From an uncultured archaeon (GTDB lineage Archaea > Asgardarchaeota > Heimdallarchaeia > Heimdallarchaeales > Heimdallarchaeaceae): 64,000 nt of DNA. A program made the translations under genes and the position numbers. The notes under the pieces are model-generated. The model was not told the origin of the DNA. It was given only the letters and a program-made list of their open reading frames with translations, and searched no databases. Location: assembly GCA_964549075.1 (NCBI GenBank), contig CAZJUB010000010.1, positions 1,575 through 65,574 of the forward strand. The letters are read 5' to 3'. Shown here piece after piece: positions 5,329 through 63,472 of this stretch (position 1 is its first letter; each line of letters starts with the position of its first letter).

Positions 5329-7815
5329 ATGCAGACAAAAGAAACAAAAAGAATTAGAAACATACTGATATATTGGGTACTATCGTCAGTTCTATTTATA
5401 ATAGACGCAGCCTTAAAAGCACTTCCAGCTTATAATAGTCCAACAAAAAATAGATTAATACCTCATCTTCAAGGAGTTATAGAGTTACCAATTTTAGTAA
5501 ATCAAAATTACCTTATTTGGGGAATTGTAAATTTTGTAGGTTTAGCTTCAATTATTCTTTTGATAATAATTATCTTAAGACCAGAGAAAAGTAAGGATGT
5601 TTTCTTTATAGGTTTGGTACCATTAATTATTTCAATAATTGCTCTAAGTTATGGTATAGCATCATTTTGGGGTGTTGTTGCACTTATCTTCAATTTTATG
5701 ATAGCTTGGAATTGTTTGAGTTTGACAGGAAGAATCAAGCAATTTACTAGTTATATCAATAGAACGATTTTCAAAAATAAAAAAATTGTAACCGGAATAA
5801 TATGGACTATCTCCACAGCTTCATTAATCCTCGATGCTGTTCTACGAGCATTTCCTGAAAGTCAAACAGAAGGTGTTTATCAAATTGTAAGAGGAGTAAT
5901 AGAATGTATCGGAGCAGGATTTGTTTTACTTACAATTTTATTAATTAACAAAAAGGTACCTAATAAAATAAAAATGTATGTTGGTTTGGGTCCACTTGCG
6001 GCTACTTTTCTTGGATTTCTGATAGGTTATCCAATTTCTATGACTTCAATATGGATGTGGATTTCTATTGTGTTCAGTGTATTAACAATGGCTCAATTTG
6101 TCAAGTTATATGGAAAAATCAAAGACATTCCAACATTCAATCGAAAAATGAATGGGATATTTTGGCTTTTCGCAGCAATTATGGGATTAATTAATGCAAT
6201 TAATATTGCTTTCCCACTCTATAACTTACATACTAAAACTGTAGATTTAGGATGGGGAATCATTGAAACACTACTAGCAGTTTCAATACTAATTCCGTTA
6301 CCGATTTACATTTACGATTCAATGATTACAGAGGGTAAAAGAACTAACATTATGAAAAAGATGATTAATGCTATTTCCATAAGATTCCAAAATACAAAAA
6401 TCAAAGTTTTGTTTTCAATATTTCTAGTCCTTACAACAGGAGTTGCTCTTGGATGGGACTTAGCACGAGATTATCTTTACTACAGGTGGTCTCAATTTTC
6501 GTATTATGAACTATACAGCAATTATGTTATACCTATAGTGTTTAATGGATTAAGTGCTTTCATAATATTAATTCTGTTTTATAGATTATTAATAAAAGAT
6601 AAAAGTACTAAAATTGACAAGATTACTGCTACTCTACCTTTAGCTCTTTCAATTGTTAATCTCTTTCTATATACTAATTTAAAGCCTCTATCTCTATATA
6701 TTTCGTGGGTACCAGTTTTCTTAGTAAGTTTATTCATCTTTATTTTTAGTTTAAGAGGTCAAGAATCTAGGACCAGCCGTTGGGTAATGAGGATAACAGG
6801 TATAGTACCTGCAATTTTAGCTATAACTAGCTTTATCTTTTCCTTAGTAGCAGAAGGGACAGATATTTGGTCGTGGTTATCACTTATTTCTGGTATTTTT
6901 GCGACAATTTTTGCTATTCTTGTTACAGGAAATGCTAATAATCAAGAAAGAAGAGTTATCAAGTTTGGAAAGACATGGAATGTTTTCAAAAAGAATTGGA
7001 TGGGTATTACAGGTCTTATCCTTTTAACAGTGATAGTTATTTTAGCTATAGGAGGATCAAGATTAACTAAATGGGATCCTGATAAATATTATGTACAAGA
7101 TCGTCTTCAAGCCCCATCTACTACTCACATCCTAGGTACGAACCGTTATGGTCAAGACGTATTCACTGTATTACTAGATAGTCTTGGTATCTCACTTCTT
7201 ATTGGTATTATTGCAGGTAGTCTAACTGTGATAGTAGGAACTACGATAGGTGTTGCGAGTGCATACATTGGGGGTTGGGTTGATAACATAATTATGCGTA
7301 TAACTGATGTTATTTTAGTGATGCCAGCACTCCCATTGATGTTAGTGTTAGCTTCTTTACCATTTCTATTTGGTAAAGTACATTGGTCTGTAATAGCAGT
7401 GGTTTATATTGTGGTATTCTGGCCAGTATCTGCTAGACTAATTAGAGGTCAAGCTCTATCAGTTAAAGAAAGAGCATTTGTTATAAGTGCTAAATCTTCA
7501 GGAGCAGGATCAGGTTATATAATATTCAGGCACATTTTACCTAATGTATTTCCATTAATGCTTACTATGATTATAACTTCGATGAGACAAGCAATATTAT
7601 ATGAATCATTCTTATCCTATTTAGGTCTTGGAGATCCATTAAATTGGACTCTTGGTCAGATGCTTTATATTGCTCAAAATCAAGCAGCTTTTGCATCTGG
7701 AGCTTGGTGGATGTTCTTCCCTCCAGGTATAGCAATAGGTTTGATAACATTGAGTTTTGCATTTATTGGAATGGCATTGGATGAAATTGTAAATCCACGT
7801 TTGAGGAAAAGGTGA
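5329..7815 (+). CDS. ABC transporter permease (OppC/DppC-like) with an N-terminal polytopic extension of about 550 aa
   Basis: The canonical core starts near FKKNWMGITGLILL..HILGTNRYGQDVF. The EAA-type loop is SAKSSGAGSGYIIFRHILPNVFPL. The preceding ~550 aa are repeated multi-helix modules. Confidence 0.85.
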   Translation: MQTKETKRIRNILIYWVLSSVLFIIDAALKALPAYNSPTKNRLIPHLQGVIELPILVNQNYLIWGIVNFVGLASIILLIIIILRPEKSKDVFFIGLVPLIISIIALSYGIASFWGVVALIFNFMIAWNCLSLTGRIKQFTSYINRTIFKNKKIVTGIIWTISTASLILDAVLRAFPESQTEGVYQIVRGVIECIGAGFVLLTILLINKKVPNKIKMYVGLGPLAATFLGFLIGYPISMTSIWMWISIVFSVLTMAQFVKLYGKIKDIPTFNRKMNGIFWLFAAIMGLINAINIAFPLYNLHTKTVDLGWGIIETLLAVSILIPLPIYIYDSMITEGKRTNIMKKMINAISIRFQNTKIKVLFSIFLVLTTGVALGWDLARDYLYYRWSQFSYYELYSNYVIPIVFNGLSAFIILILFYRLLIKDKSTKIDKITATLPLALSIVNLFLYTNLKPLSLYISWVPVFLVSLFIFIFSLRGQESRTSRWVMRITGIVPAILAITSFIFSLVAEGTDIWSWLSLISGIFATIFAILVTGNANNQERRVIKFGKTWNVFKKNWMGITGLILLTVIVILAIGGSRLTKWDPDKYYVQDRLQAPSTTHILGTNRYGQDVFTVLLDSLGISLLIGIIAGSLTVIVGTTIGVASAYIGGWVDNIIMRITDVILVMPALPLMLVLASLPFLFGKVHWSVIAVVYIVVFWPVSARLIRGQALSVKERAFVISAKSSGAGSGYIIFRHILPNVFPLMLTMIITSMRQAILYESFLSYLGLGDPLNWTLGQMLYIAQNQAAFASGAWWMFFPPGIAIGLITLSFAFIGMALDEIVNPRLRKR

Positions 7816-12292: not shown

Positions 12293-13339
12293 TCATTTAT
12301 TTCTTAAGGATCTTCTAAAAGCTAGAACTGCTTCTAAAACAACGAAAAATAATGCTGAATAACTTAGGAAGACGTAAAGTATAACACGATCAGCATAACC
12401 TCCATATTGATCGCTACTTAAATGATAATAAACAATTGCATCACCGATTTGGTAAAATGGAGCTAAATAATCATACAACTTATTATATTCATATTTACCT
12501 TGGTTTTCAATACCGAACTGATTAATTACAATTTCTGTGCTATAATTTCTTAAAGTATTCATAACAGCTTCTTTTGAGAAATCTGTTATATTAATAGCTG
12601 TCCATGCAAACACTCTTCCTCCATCTTGTTTCGCTGGAGAGTGCATATCTGTTCCTGAAATCATTCCAACGGTATTATTATGACTTTTAACAAAATTATA
12701 GGATCCCTCATCGAAATCTAGTCCATTCATGACTTCAAAATAGTCCACCCCCCAGCTCTATAAAAGCTCGTTAGAAGGGACATTTTCTTCTGAAGTTCTT
12801 CTTGTATATCCAGGATGATTAAATGTGACTGTGCCATTTTGTCTATGTACTTCATCTATTGCTTGTCGTATTTCATCGTTGTTAGGATTCCATGGGATCT
12901 CAAGAGTCCAATTTTTTATACCTATAAAATTCAAATGAACACGATTTGTTGTCCATTCCATCCCTTGAATTACAATACACCTATTAGCATATTCATTGGC
13001 GAGTAATTGAATTTCCTCCGAATTTTTTAGAGTATTATGGTCAGAGATAACTACTACTTTAAATCCTAAAGCTAAATGCCATTCAATATTTTGTCGAACA
13101 GTAAGTTTACCATCACTATATTTTGTATGAGAATGTTGATCCAATAATAAATCATATTTTACATCTGTTTGGGGAACATAAGGAGTTGAATCTTTCCAAC
13201 TATCGTCTGAATAGATGTATCTTGGAGGACCATACACTTTTAACAGCACACTTCCAGCAGCTATCAGTGCTACTATGAATAAGTAAATTGCTAAGTGAAA
13301 AGAAAACCTTCTCAGACTCCTAAATATGTCCATTATCAA
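12293..13339 (-). pseudogene. Membrane-anchored PHP-domain phosphoesterase interrupted by one in-frame TAG (pseudogene, sequencing error or recoded gene)
   Basis: ORFs 12758-13339 and 12293-12748 are in the same frame. The minus-strand reading is ...SNELL-TAG-SWGVDYFEVMNG..., with the TAG at 12760-12758. PHP motifs DQHSHTKYSDG, SDHN, FNHPG and GTDMHSP span the stop. There are N- and C-terminal TM helices. Confidence 0.65.
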
Positions 13340-55997: not shown

Positions 55998-56630
55998 TTA
56001 AGGAAAGCATGTTTTTAGATTCATGTCATATTGTTCTGATTCTAAAAGAATCATTACTAAAGAAAAAAGGTTGATAACTTCTCTAACTTCTTCTTGACTA
56101 CTACCTGTAAAGATAGCTCTTAAAGAATCACTGTAGTTAGTAACATAGCCCTTTAGTTTTTCTGTAGGAATTGAATAAATATGTATGAGTAATTTTTTAA
56201 AATTAGGAGTATCAACAGGTGATTCTCCAGTGTAAAAGGCAAGTAATTGTCTTATAGTGTTCAATAATTCCTTACCGTTTTCTGTATCCCAAAAACCTTC
56301 TGACATCATTGTCATAGGGATCATTAAAAGCGCTTTACGTGAGTATAACTGAGTAGCTGCTGTACTACCGCGAATTAATCTTTGACCTGCTTTAATCACC
56401 AAGTCTACATCCTGGAGGGATTTAATATAATTGTATATTGTAATTTCTGATTTTGGTTTAGAAACATGTTTGTTGTACTCAAAAGTAATTTCCTTTATTG
56501 GCATCGGACCTTTTCGAAGAAGATCTAATAATATTGCAAATTTTGGATCATTATATGCCTTTAATTGTTTCTTATCCTCTACAATCATCAAAGGTTCAGG
56601 TTCTTGGATAATATAATCTTCGCGACTCAT
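55998..56630 (-). CDS. Lineage-specific winged-helix protein, paralog P3
   Basis: ILLDLLRKGPMPIKEITFEYNKH, TIYNYIKSLQDVDLVIKAGQRLIRGSTAATQLYSRKA, and C-terminal EQYDMNLKTCFP. It starts 7 nt after the P4 stop. Confidence 0.65.
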   Translation of the reverse strand: MSREDYIIQEPEPLMIVEDKKQLKAYNDPKFAILLDLLRKGPMPIKEITFEYNKHVSKPKSEITIYNYIKSLQDVDLVIKAGQRLIRGSTAATQLYSRKALLMIPMTMMSEGFWDTENGKELLNTIRQLLAFYTGESPVDTPNFKKLLIHIYSIPTEKLKGYVTNYSDSLRAIFTGSSQEEVREVINLFSLVMILLESEQYDMNLKTCFP

Positions 56631-56637
56631 TAAACCA

Positions 56638-57372
56638 TCAATCCTTATTTGTACGTGAGGGGAAACATTTCCTTAGTTCTTCAGCATATTTTTCTTGAGA
56701 TAGCACCATTATTAACACATTAAGAACTTCTGTAGTTCTTGAAAGTTGACTAAAACTTAAAGGTGAAACAATTTCATCTATCTGGTCTGAGTACTTAATA
56801 AAAAGATTACTAACCTCATTTCTGAAATTAGCAAATATTCTATGAAATAAAGCAATTAGATTTTCTTCAGTTAAACCTTCAGATAAAGTGAAAATAGTTA
56901 GAAGTTTTTTAGTTTTTGCTAAAATAGATTTACTTTCATCAGAATCCCAGTATTTTTCAGTCATTACAGAAGAGTAGTAAAGTTTAGCTCTTCGACTATA
57001 AAGTACTTCAGTTGCAGTTTTCCCACTTAAGATCCTCTGACCAGCTTTAAGTATCAAATCTTTTTTTACCAAATCCATCAAATAATTATAAATACTAGTC
57101 TGTTTTTTAGGAGAATCAGCGATCTTATTATATTCATCAACAAGTTCTTTAATCGTCATTGGACCTTTGTTTAGAGCTTCAAAAATGGGACTATACCTTG
57201 AGTCACTGAGTAAACGAAAAGAGTCTTCATCCTCAATGATGAAAATCTGTTGTTGTTCCTCAATAATAAAATCTTTGTAATCCATTAATTCACGTCTAAG
57301 CTCAGTGCTCAAATAAATTTCGCCCACACCAATATAAATATTTTTGAAAAGCCGTTTATTTTTATTGAGCAA
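56638..57372 (-). CDS. Lineage-specific winged-helix protein, paralog P4
   Basis: IFEALNKGPMTIKELVDEYNK, SIYNYLMDLVKKDLILKAGQRILSGKTATEVLYSRRAKLY, and C-terminal EKYAEELRKCFP. The likely true start is the ATG at 57285 (MDYKDF...). Confidence 0.65.
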   Translation of the reverse strand: MLNKNKRLFKNIYIGVGEIYLSTELRRELMDYKDFIIEEQQQIFIIEDEDSFRLLSDSRYSPIFEALNKGPMTIKELVDEYNKIADSPKKQTSIYNYLMDLVKKDLILKAGQRILSGKTATEVLYSRRAKLYYSSVMTEKYWDSDESKSILAKTKKLLTIFTLSEGLTEENLIALFHRIFANFRNEVSNLFIKYSDQIDEIVSPLSFSQLSRTTEVLNVLIMVLSQEKYAEELRKCFPSRTNKD

Positions 57373-57426
57373 TAATCAACTGTTGTGCGAAAACTTTATA
57401 TAATTCTTGAGAGATATTCTCAATAG

Positions 57427-57729
57427 ATGAGAATATTAGGATTTGATTCGATGGGAACAAATCAAGAGAACATGAAAAAAAACCCATTTCACATAATCTA
57501 TGAATTATCAAAGAAGCTAAAAGATATTGATGAACTGACAGACGAGAAATTATTGATAATCTTTGATGAAATGGCAGAGGAGTTTGCAAGCGGAAGTTAT
57601 GGGTATCAATACTTACCAGACTTTCTTATAGGATATAGTGAAGCGCAACAAGAGAAAAAACCGGTTAAAAAACGAAAAATTTCAGGAAGCATAGTTCTGG
57701 ACGGAAACTATTGCTTCCTTTCACGATAA
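57427..57729 (+). CDS. Small hypothetical protein, possible distant member of family S (S4)
   Basis: ELTDEKLLIIFDEMAEEFA resembles EFEKEEEIFKMIDQIAETIF of S1. It is divergent from P4. The start is uncertain (an internal MKKNPFH is possible). Confidence 0.35.
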   Translation: MRILGFDSMGTNQENMKKNPFHIIYELSKKLKDIDELTDEKLLIIFDEMAEEFASGSYGYQYLPDFLIGYSEAQQEKKPVKKRKISGSIVLDGNYCFLSR

Positions 57730-57790
57730 AAAGAAGTTAAGAAGCATGCTGATTTGAAGCTCACCTTTTCAAACTTCTTCTTTCTTCTTT

Positions 57791-58453
57791 TTAACAACCA
57801 CATTTCTGTAGTTCTTCCTTAAAATTATCACTATTCATAATCAAAATTACTTTTCCTAATAAATCAAAAATCTTATCTACATCCTTGAAAGAATAACCTG
57901 ATATAAGATCATTAATTGTATCATCATTCTTCTCAAAAAACGCAGCTAGTTCATTATTAGTAGTATTAGCAGTCTTACTCATTAGTTTTGCAAGATTTTC
58001 AGAGTTTATGTTCTTACAAGTATATAATGTAAGCAACTCTTTTAAAGTCTCAATCATTTTTTGATTATCCGTATCTGGTTTGTAACCTTGATCATCAGTC
58101 CAATAATCTTCTTTAAGTGCTAGATTCCAAAAAATCTTAGCTGTGCGACCGTAGAGAGTCTCAGTCGCAGATTGACCAGTAGTTATTATTTTACCTACTT
58201 CAGCTACTAGATTATATTTAGCAAGTTCCTTGAGATATCTATAAATTGTCATTTCAGATTTCGGTTCAGAAGCAAGCTCATTATATTTTTCAACAAGTTC
58301 TTTAATAGTCATTGGACCTTCTCGTAGAATTATTATAATTGGTTCATAATTCTTATCAAATAATTTCTCTACTGTTTCCTCATCTCTGATAACCATTACA
58401 CCCAGTTGTTCTCTAGTTATTACTCTCTGTTGCTTTGAACTCATTTTATTCAC
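57791..58453 (-). CDS. Lineage-specific winged-helix protein, paralog P5
   Basis: IIIILREGPMTIKELVEKYNEL, TIYRYLKELAKYNLVAEVGKIITTGQSATETLYGRTAKIF, and C-terminal DNFKEELQKCGC. Confidence 0.65.
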   Translation of the reverse strand: MNKMSSKQQRVITREQLGVMVIRDEETVEKLFDKNYEPIIIILREGPMTIKELVEKYNELASEPKSEMTIYRYLKELAKYNLVAEVGKIITTGQSATETLYGRTAKIFWNLALKEDYWTDDQGYKPDTDNQKMIETLKELLTLYTCKNINSENLAKLMSKTANTTNNELAAFFEKNDDTINDLISGYSFKDVDKIFDLLGKVILIMNSDNFKEELQKCGC

Positions 58454-59028: not shown

Positions 59029-59472
59029 ATGAATTGGAAGAGATTTGTTCGCAAATATTCCGTTAGATTCGGAATGTATGTTTTAATTACTGCGGTTCTA
59101 ATGACTGCAAGTGTTCTAATATATAATAGCAAATTAACACCATATATTTATTCAAATGACAGTTGGGACCAGATTGAGCCATTTGTTCCTACTACAAACA
59201 TATCCTATAATATTCTTTTTGACCAACACTCCCACACCTATTATAGTGATGGTATTTTAAGTGTTGAACAAAACATCAGATGGCACATTGCCATGGGATT
59301 TAATGCTGGTGCGATTACAGATCATAACAACTTGAAAAGTTCAGAGGAGATTGCGGAGTTAACTCCAAAATATCAAGATCAGATTTCAATTATTCAAGGT
59401 ATGGAATGAACCACACAGAGAATTCACTTGAATTTCTTAGGTATCTCTACCTGGGATTTACCTATACCGTAA
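59029..59472 (+). pseudogene. Truncated paralog of the PHP phosphoesterase with a TGA at a conserved Trp codon
   Basis: It is colinear with 12758-13339, with roughly half the residues identical by eye, including DQHSHT.YSDG and DHN. QGME-TGA-TTQRIHLNFLGI aligns to QGMEWTTNRVHLNFIGI. The frame ends at 59472 and the C-terminal half is absent. Confidence 0.7.
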
Positions 59473-59589: not shown

Positions 59590-60597
59590 TTAGTCGATAA
59601 AAAGAAATGCTTCTTTCCCTTCTTTTCCCACAATTTCAAAACCATTCTTCAGATACAGGATTTTTGCAATATCATTGTTAGAGGTAACAGCTAACGAAAC
59701 TGTTTCACATTTATCTTCTTCGTAATATTTGATAATAGTATTTCTAAAAAGTACTTTACCTAAACCCAATCCTCTGTAATCTGGATGAACAACTAGGTCA
59801 ACAATTACACCTTTTCTATCTATAGGTGCCATATTAAGAATGTACCCAACAAGTTCTCCTTTTGAATTTTCAACAAGCATAGAGGTTTTATTGCTCAATC
59901 TTCCGTAATATCCTGAAATTAGTTTCATCATAAGAGAGATATTGTAACTGGAAAAATGTTTAGACAACAGAACCACATTATCAGTGAAATCTACTTTAGA
60001 ATAGACTACATTCATAAGACGAGCTATTTTATCTGTTGAAACCTCGTAAAGTGCTTTTAATTTGAACACTTGAGATCTTCTCCCTTTTTTCAATTTGAAA
60101 GATCTGTTAAAATCTAAAGAGTCGTATTTCTCTTTTAATAAGTGGGTTTTTCCTAAATCATACCATTTCTGGACATAATGTTCTTTAGTAAGGAGTAGAC
60201 TCATCCTTTTGTGAACCATAACTTCGTCAGGAAGTTTATCTATGTCTATATTAATAAAACTCATATCACTCATATTAAAAGCGTAAATTGCTTCTATAAA
60301 TTCCATTTTGCAGAAATTTATTAACTTATAAAAAACATTCAGCTCCTGAAGGTCAATATCTGGTAAAAATGCAATATGAATTAACTCGAGTATATTAGGC
60401 GCGACTTCATCTTTTACTCCAACAATTGTACCTAAAATCTTATCATCCTCATTTTCATCGATGAATTTCAGCAGATACATAACAGGAATATTAACAAATC
60501 GATCGTTAATTTCCTCTGGGGTCGTGTCAAATAAATCTCCGAGAAAATTAGCAATATTTTCAAAGTTTTCTTCAATTACCCACTTCATCACTATCAA
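59590..60597 (-). CDS. GNAT-family N-acetyltransferase (C-terminal GNAT domain, N-terminal degenerate second domain)
   Basis: Motif A VVDLVVHPDYRGLGLGKVLF and a downstream ...KILYLKNGFE. Confidence 0.7.
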   Translation of the reverse strand: MIVMKWVIEENFENIANFLGDLFDTTPEEINDRFVNIPVMYLLKFIDENEDDKILGTIVGVKDEVAPNILELIHIAFLPDIDLQELNVFYKLINFCKMEFIEAIYAFNMSDMSFINIDIDKLPDEVMVHKRMSLLLTKEHYVQKWYDLGKTHLLKEKYDSLDFNRSFKLKKGRRSQVFKLKALYEVSTDKIARLMNVVYSKVDFTDNVVLLSKHFSSYNISLMMKLISGYYGRLSNKTSMLVENSKGELVGYILNMAPIDRKGVIVDLVVHPDYRGLGLGKVLFRNTIIKYYEEDKCETVSLAVTSNNDIAKILYLKNGFEIVGKEGKEAFLFID

Positions 60598-60642
60598 CTT
60601 TTCATATTAGAGTTATAACATTTTCCGTAATTTCTTTGAAAA

Positions 60643-61440
60643 CTAGCTCTCTCCTACCTTATTTATCAGAAGTTTAAACCATTTAGGCATAATATAACCT
60701 AAATATCCTAAAATTATACCTATTAAAGCAAATACCCAACCTAAATAATAAAATGGAGTGTAACCTTTTGAAAAAGCACTTACATTAGAGATAAGAACTG
60801 TATCGCCTGCAAAAGAAAGGAATAATAAGGGAATAAAAATGCCATAGAGACCGATCAAAATGAAACCAACTTTATGAAAATGCTCAGTACTTAATCTTGA
60901 TTCCCTAAATGAAAATACAGAAATTAAACCATAGGAAATTAAAGATAGCAAAGATAAAGATATCACTATTAACTGAACTGATTTTTGTCGAATTAATCCA
61001 AAGCTCTGATCAATATAGATCCAGGTATAGATTTGAGGGAGAAGAAGACCAATTATAGTGCCATTTACCAAAACAAAAGAGAATGTAAAATCAATTCCTT
61101 TATTAAAATAGATGCTATCCACAAAAATTACAGCAAAGCAATTTGATATTGCTATAAAGATATAACTAAGAAGAGTGGTTAAATCAGTAATACTCAAATC
61201 TAGATAGTCTATGGGAGAAAAATACCCGACCCATCGTCCAATCGCAGTCGTCATACTAGCAAGAGTGAAACTAAGGAAAGTCAAACCGAGATAAAGGCCA
61301 GGTTTTTTCTTTCGTTCGAAATATTTCTTGAATACAAATAGTGTCAGAAAAACAAGAATACTAGCAACTAAAGTTTCAAGTATAATTGCACCCATTGGTA
61401 TTTTATTAGACCACCACTCCATTAAATCACCAGAAGGCAT
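60643..61440 (-). CDS. Seven-helix integral membrane protein of unknown function
   Basis: I count seven hydrophobic segments by eye. The start overlaps the upstream gene by 14 nt, or lies 4 nt downstream if Met7 is used. Confidence 0.55.
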   Translation of the reverse strand: MPSGDLMEWWSNKIPMGAIILETLVASILVFLTLFVFKKYFERKKKPGLYLGLTFLSFTLASMTTAIGRWVGYFSPIDYLDLSITDLTTLLSYIFIAISNCFAVIFVDSIYFNKGIDFTFSFVLVNGTIIGLLLPQIYTWIYIDQSFGLIRQKSVQLIVISLSLLSLISYGLISVFSFRESRLSTEHFHKVGFILIGLYGIFIPLLFLSFAGDTVLISNVSAFSKGYTPFYYLGWVFALIGIILGYLGYIMPKWFKLLINKVGES

Positions 61441-61873
61441 CAGAAATTATTTTGGTTGCTTTTCTCTGAGCTATCTCTTTATCTCCATTTTGCATCATAA
61501 GCTCTATGGAATCCTCTATCTCTTTGATTTCTTTACTACTTAGAAGATTATAATCTGATATCTCAGGATATTTTGTGCTGATATCTTTGAGAATTTTTGC
61601 AGTAATTTCATGCATAATATTTCGTTCAACTTCTTTTGTAGCTCTTCTGAGTAATGCTACAGCAAAATTATCTGTTAATTCAATAAAAACTTCAAATTTC
61701 TTTGTATCAACAAATTTTGGAACTCCTACATCGATTTCTTCCATAGCAGATTGAATAGCTGTCATTATTCCGCTAAAGAGCGCTTTATCAGTAAAACTAC
61801 TATGTTCATCTCCTTTATCAACAACAACTATTGGTAATCCAGTTCTAGAAATGACATAGACAGCTTGAATCAT
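61427..61873 (-). CDS. Small longin/roadblock-superfamily-like protein
   Basis: IQAVYVISRTGLPIVVV (beta hairpin), then LFSGIMTAIQSAMEEI (helix), then FVDTKKFEVFIELTDNFAVALL (strands), then helices. The beta-beta-alpha-beta-beta-beta-alpha order is judged by eye only. Confidence 0.35.
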   Translation of the reverse strand: MIQAVYVISRTGLPIVVVDKGDEHSSFTDKALFSGIMTAIQSAMEEIDVGVPKFVDTKKFEVFIELTDNFAVALLRRATKEVERNIMHEITAKILKDISTKYPEISDYNLLSSKEIKEIEDSIELMMQNGDKEIAQRKATKIISDAFW

Positions 61874-61934
61874 TGATACCTAAAAAACATGCTCAAATTT
61901 AAATGTGACGCATATCTATTTAAAGAAATCATGT

Positions 61935-62159
61935 TTAGAGATTATAACCTTTATATAAAGCTCGAAAAACCTCTTCTTTTGATCCACCATGTTTGTTGAT
62001 TATATCGATTATAATAGCAGCAATGAGTTGAATCTCTTCTGCAGTAAAATCACGTTCATCTAATTCTTCTTGTAATTTACGTAAAGCTGTAAACTTGTTT
62101 GCACCAAAATCAATTCTTCCTTCATATCTATCTTTAATTTCATCCATAAGATAACTCAT
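61935..62159 (-). CDS. Small hypothetical helical protein
   Basis: 74 aa. It is first in the minus-strand gene string. No motif. Confidence 0.4.
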   Translation of the reverse strand: MSYLMDEIKDRYEGRIDFGANKFTALRKLQEELDERDFTAEEIQLIAAIIIDIINKHGGSKEEVFRALYKGYNL

Positions 62160-62347: not shown

Positions 62348-62926
62348 TTGGTGACTTATGTGCTATTAAAATTAAAAAAAAGGAAACAAATCTCCTTCTT
62401 TGCTGTTGGTATTTTCATTCTGCTCATATTCTCAGCTAGTCCTATAGCTGGAGATGATGGGGATGACGGGGATAGTTCTAAAAACATAGGATATATTGCT
62501 ATAAGTCTTTTTGTTTTAGGCATGATCAATGTTGTTTTCTTATATGCGTATAGGATAACTAGAAGATTTCTTAGTGAAGAAGGTCTTGCTGGAAAAACTC
62601 GGGATTTCACCAGAGAAGCTTATATTGTAACAAGAAAACCACTAAATTGGGTACATTATTTATTAACATTTTCTGCAACTACAATAATCATTCTTCATGG
62701 GTTTAGATTGATGAATAAAGAAGAGGAAGTAGGCATATTTGGTTGGATTGCTACGGCAATATTCCTTTTTTACATTTTAACTGGGATTATCATTAAACTC
62801 AGAATTAAACCTTTCTGGAATCATAAAAACATAAGATATCTATTAAATTTTCTTCATAGAAACCTAATTATCTTCATTATAGTAATTTTTATTCATATAG
62901 TTCATATTCTTGCTTCAGACGAGTAA
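62348..62926 (+). CDS. Hypothetical membrane protein with conserved-looking intramembrane histidines
   Basis: Five hydrophobic helices with His in helices (VHYLL...ILHGF and FIHIVHIL). The acidic loop is GDDGDDGDS. Confidence 0.45.
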   Translation: MVTYVLLKLKKRKQISFFAVGIFILLIFSASPIAGDDGDDGDSSKNIGYIAISLFVLGMINVVFLYAYRITRRFLSEEGLAGKTRDFTREAYIVTRKPLNWVHYLLTFSATTIIILHGFRLMNKEEEVGIFGWIATAIFLFYILTGIIIKLRIKPFWNHKNIRYLLNFLHRNLIIFIIVIFIHIVHILASDE

Positions 62927-63013: not shown

Positions 63014-63472
63014 ATGTCAGAATCGACATCAACAACAACAACAACAACAACTAAAAAGACTCCGGCAAAAAAAGCAACAACAGCTCCACCTTCACCATCG
63101 AAGGATAAATGGAGATTTGCTGGATATTGGAATGCTTTAATAGGTGCCTTTATACTAATAGTACAAGGATTTTTACTATTTTTCAATGGTCTTGCTGGAG
63201 GGATAGGATTCCTAGCAGGCTCAAACATCTTTGTTACTTTTGGTTCTAATTGGGGAATATGGCTTGCAGCAGCTCTTCAAATGGCTCTCGGTATTTTTAT
63301 ATTAATATTGATTTGGGCAACAATTCAAAAATTACTAAATATTGGAGTCTTAGTAAAAGATACCATGTGGTTAGGGATTATTCTCTTACTAATTGGTATA
63401 ATAACCTTAGGTCTTGGAGGAGCTCTTGTATTAGTTGGAGGTATATTTTACCTCTTAAGCATACCAAAGTAA
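63014..63472 (+). CDS. Hypothetical membrane protein with a poly-Thr N-terminus
   Basis: MSESTSTTTTTTTKK... is followed by four hydrophobic helices, and an oligo-T tract follows the stop. Confidence 0.5.
   Translation: MSESTSTTTTTTTKKTPAKKATTAPPSPSKDKWRFAGYWNALIGAFILIVQGFLLFFNGLAGGIGFLAGSNIFVTFGSNWGIWLAAALQMALGIFILILIWATIQKLLNIGVLVKDTMWLGIILLLIGIITLGLGGALVLVGGIFYLLSIPK
63029..63052 (+). repeat. (ACA)n trinucleotide microsatellite inside the coding N-terminus
   Basis: tcaacaacaacaacaacaacaact encodes the Thr run. Confidence 0.8.

Follow-up and report, generated by a model that had tools for sequence, protein, structure and literature searches.

Two adjoining genes of an uncultured archaeon of the family Heimdallarchaeaceae raise the question of whether a small longin-like protein and a membrane protein with seven transmembrane helices (7TM protein) form a working pair and, if so, of what kind. 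The genes lie on contig CAZJUB010000010.1, in a stretch of 64,000 nucleotides (nt) referred to here as the window, with a G+C content of about 31% throughout. A first reading made from the letters alone (the sequence-only reading) had described a compact string of four minus-strand genes at this place and had taken the middle two for a receptor and its adaptor. All four open reading frames (ORFs) were found as described, head to tail on the minus strand and coding for 74, 148, 265 and 335 amino acids (aa), the last one from a TTG start. The second gene (61427..61873, minus strand), called here the partner gene, and the third (60643..61440, minus strand), coding for the 7TM protein in the 265-aa form also used by public gene calls, turned out to belong to a conserved gene pair of Asgard archaea.

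The junction of the two genes in the window is very tight. If translation of the 7TM gene starts at its first ATG (61440), the last codons and the stop of the partner gene overlap it by 14 nt (61427..61440, minus strand), and with Met7 as the start (61422) a 4-nt spacer separates them. The sequence-only reading had the stop overlapping the start of the membrane gene or lying within 4 nt of it, and which of the two holds depends on the start chosen. The 61-nt spacer preceding the partner gene contains two TTTAAAT(A) boxes and a T-run, as judged by eye, and on account of these boxes the partner and 7TM genes may therefore be under their own promoter.

A total of 39 loci gathered via the partner, the 7TM protein and the 74-aa protein were scanned with family profiles and a motif test. 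After removal of duplicates, 31 loci contained a gene of the 7TM family, and the pairing was counted on these, as the presence of a partner ORF (137–191 aa, ending in [SA][LF]W) within 400 nt of the 7TM gene. A partner was detected beside the 7TM gene in 25 of the 31 loci, with the partner gene directly upstream on the same strand in 23 loci, the 7TM gene first and a 63-nt spacer in one (L038), and a divergent arrangement with 178 nt between the genes in one (L032, Helarchaeota). Locus L008 carried a C-terminal fragment of the partner severed by the contig end, and locus L030 was too short to judge. Spacers between the longest ORFs in the 23 loci with the partner upstream on the same strand ranged from -14 to +11 nt; an apparent spacer of +91 nt in L021 reflected a frameshifted 7TM gene.

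The two genes were still adjacent when the identity to the window proteins had fallen to 15–28% for the partner and 28–31% for the 7TM protein. At distant loci (e.g., L007, L023, L028, L029 and L035) all the flanking genes differed and only the pair was kept, the flanks comprising gelsolin and Tex genes (L007) and genes for a 1147-aa surface-type protein (L023), a nitroreductase (L028) and a GHMP kinase (L035). Four loci had one partner gene followed by two tandem 7TM paralogues (L008, 145–1637; L029, 2891–4394; L035, 3001–4557; L037, 3001–4611), the two of L008 sharing about 25% identity, and this arrangement hints at hetero-oligomeric membrane complexes. The adjacency noted earlier in the window thus extends to related genomes, in three gene orders. 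The pair was kept through these three orders and through a complete turnover of neighbours, and a functional linkage is therefore argued despite the kinship among the loci; the gene neighbourhoods suggest that the partner and the 7TM protein work together at the membrane. No description of the pair or of the 7TM family was found in the literature searched, the coverage of which was incomplete, so that this amounts to absence of evidence only.

The partner was modelled with AlphaFold2 from 28 homologues, with a predicted local distance difference test score (pLDDT) of 81.7 and a predicted template modelling score (pTM) of 0.77, two of the five models being poor (pLDDT of 47 and 37). The model contains strands at residues 2–9 and 14–19, a helix at 30–46, strands at 53–56, 60–66 and 70–77 and helices at 84–101 and 113–147. 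The order is thus β-β-α-β-β-β-α-α, with a core of residues 1–101, no N-terminal helix and an additional C-terminal helix, which reproduces the order that had been judged by eye in the sequence-only reading. Longin domains differ from roadblock domains in just these respects, i.e., they lack the N-terminal helix and possess an added C-terminal one (PMC10933270).

The comparison of the partner model with the PDB by Foldseek revealed 58 matches with an expectation value (E) of at most 1e-3. Longin proteins were on top, with TRAPP Bet5 (TRAPPC1), zeta-COP, AP2 sigma, Sec22b, VAMP7 and Ykt6 as the leaders (Bet5 2j3t_C, E 5.2e-5; 5mc7_A, E 1.2e-4). The template modelling scores (TM-scores) were 0.62/0.71 for Sec22b (1ifq_A), with a root mean square deviation (rmsd) of 3.6 Å, and 0.63/0.61 for VAMP7 (4afi_B), while roadblock, MglB and LAMTOR structures ranked below the longins with about 0.44/0.5. 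In Pfam, the partner itself gave only a weak match to Robl_LC7 (E 0.12; residues 2–72 against profile positions 15–86 of 91), which omits the N-terminal helix of the profile, and a precomputed Robl_LC7 mark is carried by some of its homologues. Among 12 diverged members of the partner family, Robl_LC7 was matched by seven (best E 1.2e-5), Fuz_longin_1 by three (2.1e-4) and Sybindin and Intu_longin_1 by two each, these matches being sub-threshold to weak. The profile of the 12 members, run against PDB sequences, found an archaeal Robl_LC7 protein (7f8f_A, E 0.0024), dynein roadblock chains, TRAPPC1 and Mon1. Sequence and model together support the assignment of the partner to the longin/roadblock superfamily, as proposed in the earlier reading, with the predicted topology of a longin and not of a roadblock protein. 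A roadblock/LC7 protein of the MglB type was rejected, as the model begins with a strand and has no N-terminal helix, and no GTPase was found in the window. The partner had 55 homologues, and the named ones were all from Heimdallarchaeota or the "Asgard group".

Seven hydrophobic segments were recognized in the 7TM protein by hydropathy, and AlphaFold2 placed helices at residues 16–43, 46–74, 84–112, 118–142, 153–183, 187–219 and 229–249, followed by a short amphipathic eighth one at 253–264. The number of seven predicted earlier for the membrane protein was thus obtained in two ways. The model was built from 13 sequences and had a pLDDT of 84.7 and a pTM of 0.81, all five models being consistent (pLDDT of 83.5–84.7). 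The protein is predicted to have its N-terminus outside and its C-terminus inside (N-out/C-in) according to the positive-inside rule, since 13 Lys/Arg residues fall in the inner and 5 in the outer segments, with the loop K-K-Y-F-E-R-K-K-K after the first transmembrane helix (TM1) as the main contributor. The inner loops of the model are 2–5 residues long and the outer ones 9–10.

No family match was obtained for the 7TM protein in Pfam or NCBIfam. The profile of its family, run against 1.84 billion cluster representatives, retrieved 374 at E ≤ 1e-3 and 178 at E ≤ 1e-10, so that the family comprises at least 374 cluster representatives. Its members are nearly all stand-alone proteins of 236–277 aa. 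Those bearing a source name, which are only a sample, were all of Asgard origin (Heimdallarchaeota, Ca. Heimdallarchaeum aukensis and endolithica, Helarchaeota, Promethearchaeota, Jordarchaeaceae, the "Asgard group" and one bin labelled Thorarchaeota), and the family is provisionally regarded as Asgard-only on this sample. Two members, P0185 (384 aa) and P0187 (353 aa), had extra C-terminal extensions, cytoplasmic by the predicted topology, of which one looked winged-helix-like and the other Cys4 zinc ribbon-like by eye. Such extensions would fit an output side facing inwards.

Both families have conserved sequence features that hint at an interface. The partner family has the C-terminal signature K-x-x-x-[DEKT]-[SA]-[LF]-W-COOH, which in the window reads K-I-I-S-D-A-F-W-COOH (61430..61453, minus strand). 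All partners end in [SA][LF]W-COOH, and the terminal Trp (W148), which closes a last helix of 35 residues, was invariant in the alignments. The loci, 362 kb in all, contained 435 ORFs of 90 aa or more; a terminal Trp was found in 33 of them, of which 31 were partners beside a 7TM gene.

In the 7TM family, the most conserved stretch was YLGYxMPxW at the inner end of TM7, represented in the window by Y-L-G-Y-I-M-P-K-W (60679..60705, minus strand), which runs from the cytoplasmic end of TM7 into the beginning of the last helix. It contains P252, the sole residue invariant across 66 diverged sequences. The other best-conserved positions lay in the basic first loop between TM1 and TM2 (61303..61329, minus strand) and at the inner ends of TM3 and TM6, the conserved residues being N100, F106, G192, D213, Y246, G248, P252 and W254 together with K39, Y40 and R43 of the basic loop. 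With the halves assigned from the model, the inner halves of the protein were more conserved than the outer ones (1.74 versus 1.35 bits of information content per position; Mann-Whitney p = 4e-4). A conserved inner face of this kind fits an intracellular interface better than an external ligand site, although it is no proof of one.

The reading that is cautiously favoured here is that of an old Asgard two-gene module, with the 7TM protein as sensor or anchor and the longin protein as an adaptor docked on its inner face. The observed folds, topology, family distributions, terminal motifs and conserved, tightly spaced pairing are its starting points, whereas the surfaces that touch and any signal or ligand are putative. 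According to this model, the longin partner and the stand-alone 7TM protein would be made together, and the partner would dock, via its long C-terminal helix with the invariant Trp at the end, on the conserved cytoplasmic face of the 7TM protein. To this face belong the basic first loop, the YLGYxMPxW motif and the inner ends of TM3, TM6 and TM7. The 7TM protein would act as the sensor or anchor, and the longin domain, probably dimeric like other longin and roadblock proteins, would be localised at the membrane as an adaptor; the downstream factor that it serves would have its gene elsewhere, with a small GTPase as the most plausible candidate by analogy.

Several points weigh against this model. 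The contact between the partner and the 7TM protein is deduced from the linkage of their genes, and the GTPase step is taken from analogy. When three GTPase queries, two of them approximate, were run against the window by tblastn, no small GTPase was detected at E ≤ 1e-2, which agrees with the absence reported in the sequence-only reading. Within 3 kb of the 7TM gene or the pair, a small GTPase was encoded in 2 of the 31 loci, which is estimated to be roughly the chance level for GTPase-rich Asgard genomes, and no link of the pair to a GTPase emerges from this count. In one of the two (L034), the GTPase gene lies about 700 nt upstream of the 7TM gene with an opposite-strand HIT gene between them, and in the other (L038) a Rag/Arf-like GTPase is encoded at 6191–6783, two genes downstream of the pair. 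The N-terminal part of the L038 GTPase looked longin-like by eye.

Also unfavourable to the two-gene module, the 7TM gene was devoid of an adjacent partner in five loci (L031, L033, L034, L036 and L039), the gene of L031 coming from a genome in which another copy is paired. Many loci come from close relatives, so that the 25 paired loci are not 25 independent events and, in our reading, represent roughly eight to ten deep lineages. No fusion of a longin domain with a 7TM protein was present among six proteins of atypical length or match pattern read from 150 listed representatives, and the two longest of the six had C-terminal extensions other than longin. AlphaFold2 is possibly biased towards a receptor-like bundle for any seven-helix protein, and the 7TM model rests on 13 sequences. 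The conservation contrast between the inner and outer halves depends on that same model. As a separate observation, a 200-aa protein with a longin-like N-terminus (by eye) and a Cys-containing C-terminal part is encoded in L031 (1964–2566, minus strand), about 1.4 kb upstream of the unpaired 7TM gene.

The main rival explanation, considered unlikely but still to be taken seriously, is a transporter or channel with its regulatory subunit. The 7TM protein would move a solute or an ion and the small protein would gate or regulate it from the inside, with no receptor function and no GTPase. Precedents exist, as GlnK, which is co-transcribed with AmtB, binds and plugs this transporter, and Ragulator binds the lysosomal transporter SLC38A9. 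The tight and conserved pairing of a gene for an α/β protein with a membrane gene is typical of regulator–transporter pairs, and the conserved inner face of the 7TM protein, the absence of a linked GTPase and the tandem 7TM duplicates behind one partner (L008, L029, L035 and L037), compatible with hetero-oligomeric complexes, would all be accommodated. However, no transporter was present in the PDB top 50 of the 7TM model, and folds of the PQ-loop, hemolysin-III and ceramidase type appeared only at E > 0.2. No internal repeat was noticed in the 7TM protein, its membrane core showed no conserved charged residues beyond N100 and D213, and no transporter family of Pfam recurred among the members, CitMHS being matched by 2 of 66. 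Membership in the PAQR, ceramidase and PQ-loop groups was rejected, since these folds occurred only far down the list of viral matches and no conserved His/Asp metal site was found.

An extension of the two-gene module, rather improbable as it stands, would make it an Asgard seven-helix receptor system. A stand-alone receptor would then signal through the Trp-ended C-terminal helix of its longin transducer, as a prokaryotic counterpart or forerunner of the eukaryotic sensors coupled to GTPase-controlling longin/roadblock platforms.

Given less credence than either is a true receptor–transducer pair akin to the seven-helix receptors of eukaryotes, with the 7TM protein homologous to G-protein-coupled receptors (GPCRs) and the longin protein playing the G protein, its C-terminal helix inserted in the cytoplasmic cavity. 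In the Foldseek search of the PDB with the 7TM model, the best 50 matches were all GPCRs, aligned over almost the full length, with TM-scores of 0.4–0.6 (up to 0.61). The protein also has the GPCR topology, i.e., seven helices, N-out/C-in, and the short helix that follows its TM7 lies where GPCRs have helix 8. Its most conserved residues are found at the inner ends of TM3, TM6 and TM7, while the partner offers a conserved C-terminal helix with an aromatic end. However, none of these matches reached E ≤ 1e-3 (best E 5e-3), the rmsd was 6.6–9 Å and seven-helix entries of the PDB are mostly GPCRs. Ordinary seven-helix proteins of E. coli resemble GPCRs moderately as well (PMC10760455).

The 7TM model was also compared with viral structures. 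Membrane proteins of Gordonia phages were the best matches (TM-score 0.60/0.60, rmsd 5.1 Å), level with herpesvirus GPCRs, and the membrane domain of a phage histidine kinase was also among the matches. The family profile found one GPCR only among PDB sequences (E 0.23), and no GPCR match was obtained in Pfam for the 7TM protein or its family members. The E/DRY motif at the end of TM3, NPxxY in TM7 and CWxP in TM6 were visible neither in the 7TM sequence nor among the conserved positions of the family. The most recurrent weak Pfam match was instead the bacterial 7TMR-DISM_7TM (PF07695), given by 9 of 66 members with a best E of 0.0046, all below threshold. As judged from the model, the fold is a receptor-type seven-helix bundle that resembles bacterial seven-helix modules as much as GPCRs, and homology to GPCRs is not shown. 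The role of "receptor" given to the membrane protein in the sequence-only reading is thus not upheld, in view of the weak GPCR likeness, the equal phage matches and the lack of GPCR motifs and Pfam matches; of the receptor–adaptor pair it described, the longin partner, the seven helices and the conserved adjacency stand, and the receptor is unproven.

Other seven-helix families were considered and rejected. Microbial rhodopsins were dismissed, as TM7 (229–252, PFYYLGWVFALIGIILGYLGYIMP) has no lysine, no Bac_rhodopsin match was obtained and no rhodopsin appeared in either Foldseek top 50. Proteins of the 7TMIC superfamily, which resemble insect odorant and gustatory receptors and have been reported in Heimdallarchaeota, are N-in/C-out, with intracellular loops longer than the extracellular ones (10.1101/2023.08.30.555482). 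The 7TM protein has the opposite topology and loop pattern, and no odorant or gustatory receptor was found in its PDB top 50. Membership in 7TMR-DISM was not accepted either, with only sub-threshold matches and a family that is stand-alone and not fused to signalling domains. Like the 7TM family, 7TMR-DISM (PF07695) represents a prokaryotic seven-helix module with a cytoplasmic output, but its proteins come fused to signalling domains outside and inside the cell, whereas the Asgard family is almost always stand-alone.

The remaining alternative, that the two genes are neighbours by descent only, with unrelated functions and synteny within one archaeal class, is highly unlikely: most loci do come from Heimdallarchaeia, other neighbours (the genes of 192-aa and 152-aa membrane proteins and paralogous genes for helix-turn-helix-like proteins of about 220 aa) are syntenic in closer relatives and five 7TM members have no partner, but the distant loci share only the pair with all flanks different, the pair survives three gene orders, its stop and start overlap or lie at most 11 nt apart and the terminal motif of the partner occurs only beside 7TM genes.

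Few eukaryote-like protein families are as expanded in Asgard archaea as the longin and roadblock proteins, and to our knowledge the partner of almost none of them has been established. The pair gives one Asgard longin family a specific candidate partner, an unnamed membrane family whose sampled named members are all Asgard. Families of longin and roadblock proteins are already known by the dozen in these archaea (PMC10933270; 10.1101/2020.10.19.343400), and in Lokiarchaeon MK-D1 their genes are usually located apart from GTPase genes (PMC10933270). The best structural matches of the partner, i.e., the longin proteins Sec22b, VAMP7, Ykt6, TRAPPC1/Bet5, the sigma- and zeta-adaptins and Mon1/Fuz, share its order of secondary-structure elements. 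In contrast to them, the partner has an unusually long last helix (35 residues) with an invariant Trp at its end, possesses no SNARE motif and no GTPase, TRAPP or DENN domain, and is encoded with a 7TM protein.

A small roadblock protein is encoded together with a membrane sensor in the actinobacterial conservons CvnA-D, which have been likened to receptor/G-protein signalling (PMC13343842, PMC13621833). The Asgard pair resembles them in combining a small protein of the roadblock superfamily with a membrane protein, and Robl_LC7 is the most frequent Pfam match of the partner family. A Ras-like GTPase and a CvnC-type protein, however, are part of every conservon, and the membrane component of conservons is histidine-kinase-like and not a stand-alone 7TM protein; the partner, unlike roadblock proteins, lacks the N-terminal helix. 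An actinobacterial conservon was rejected, as no kinase, CvnC or GTPase is encoded in or beside the gene string. In eukaryotes, SLC38A9 with Ragulator and LYCHOS/GPR155 with GATOR1 exemplify a multi-pass membrane protein that recruits a cytosolic roadblock/longin complex (PMC11525196; 10.1101/2024.11.21.624772). LYCHOS has a GPCR-like domain, and the lysosomal sensors act through Rag GTPases, to which there is no such link at the Asgard pair. The likeness to SLC38A9 and LYCHOS is one of logic only, with no sequence kinship or specific structural kinship shown.

Two sequence features offer sharp handles for mutagenesis, namely the partner's terminal Trp and, in the 7TM protein, the YLGYxMPxW motif. 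If the two proteins bind each other, they would represent a direct case of an archaeal longin domain put on the membrane without lipid anchors or SNARE-type tails and would bear on how membrane trafficking and signalling platforms originated before eukaryotes. Should there be no such binding, the finding comes down to two uncharacterised proteins encoded in a conserved operon.

The two outer genes of the string had a different history. The GNAT gene is located downstream of the pair on the minus strand, at 59590..60588 (332 aa, ATG start) or up to 60597 (335 aa, TTG start). The earlier spacing of 45 nt after the 7TM gene applies to the TTG start; the ATG at 60588, used in public gene calls and favoured also by the L001 homologue, which begins at the matching residue, gives a 54-nt spacer. 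The identification of the product as a GNAT protein was confirmed by Acetyltransf_1 above the Pfam threshold (E 3.7e-15, 56.7 bits versus a cut-off of 20.7, residues 239–320). Its score for TIGR01575 rimI (E 9.8e-15, 54.9 versus a cut-off of 86.4) does not allow assignment to RimI. The protein thus has a RimI-like C-terminal core, and its N-terminal part of about 215 aa gave no family match. The gene follows the pair only in the clade of the window and in AB_125-like clades, with a displacement of 1.9 kb in L026.

The 74-aa gene (61935..62159, minus strand) encodes a small protein of unknown function and is a clade-restricted neighbour of the pair. Its product had 39 homologues, the named ones all from Heimdallarchaeota or Heimdallarchaeaceae, and showed 59–92% identity among full-length relatives of the Heimdallarchaeaceae type. 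The gene is located upstream of the pair in the clade of the window and downstream of it in the L003/L005 clade, is not beside the pair in L007, L023–L025, L027–L029, L032, L035 and L037, and occurs alone in L009/L010, between aspartate dehydrogenase and PHP genes. A single four-gene operon was rejected, since the GNAT and 74-aa genes are not retained outside close relatives, the former being confined to the clade of the window and its relatives and the latter changing sides and being absent from most distant loci. By this distribution, both are lineage-specific neighbours and not part of the old pair.

Several other features were noticed in the window. Two genes on the plus strand, divergent from the pair, encode a 192-aa membrane protein with an acidic stretch near its N-terminus (62348–62926) and a 152-aa membrane protein with a Thr-rich N-terminus (63014–63472), both without a Pfam match. 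Both are syntenic with the pair in L001, L003 and L005, where L003/L005 have the smaller one in duplicate. A winged-helix-like segment, "GPMxIKE...YN...IYxY", is common to three tandem paralogues (210, 244 and 220 aa) on the minus strand at 55998–58453, for which Pfam gave only weak matches, to the winged-helix domains MCM_C and Cdc6_C. The loci L001, L003, L005 and L009 are flanked by genes of similar size, some of which bear faint HTH_5 marks.

A remnant of a membrane-anchored PHP-domain gene was detected at 59029–59472 on the plus strand, convergent with the GNAT gene. Its 126-aa ORF ends at a TGA (59407–59409) that, in the alignment, falls where the 341-aa homologue from L009 has the conserved Trp of its "GMEW", and the similarity runs 20 codons past this TGA and ends at residue 147 of 341. 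Judged by this alignment, it is probably a truncated pseudogene. A full-length PHP paralogue is located at 12296–13315 on the minus strand and is 46% identical to its L009 counterpart across 340 residues, with a single in-frame TAG (12758–12760; ELL*SWGVD versus QLLSWGVD), which could be due to a pseudogene, an assembly error or stop-codon read-through.

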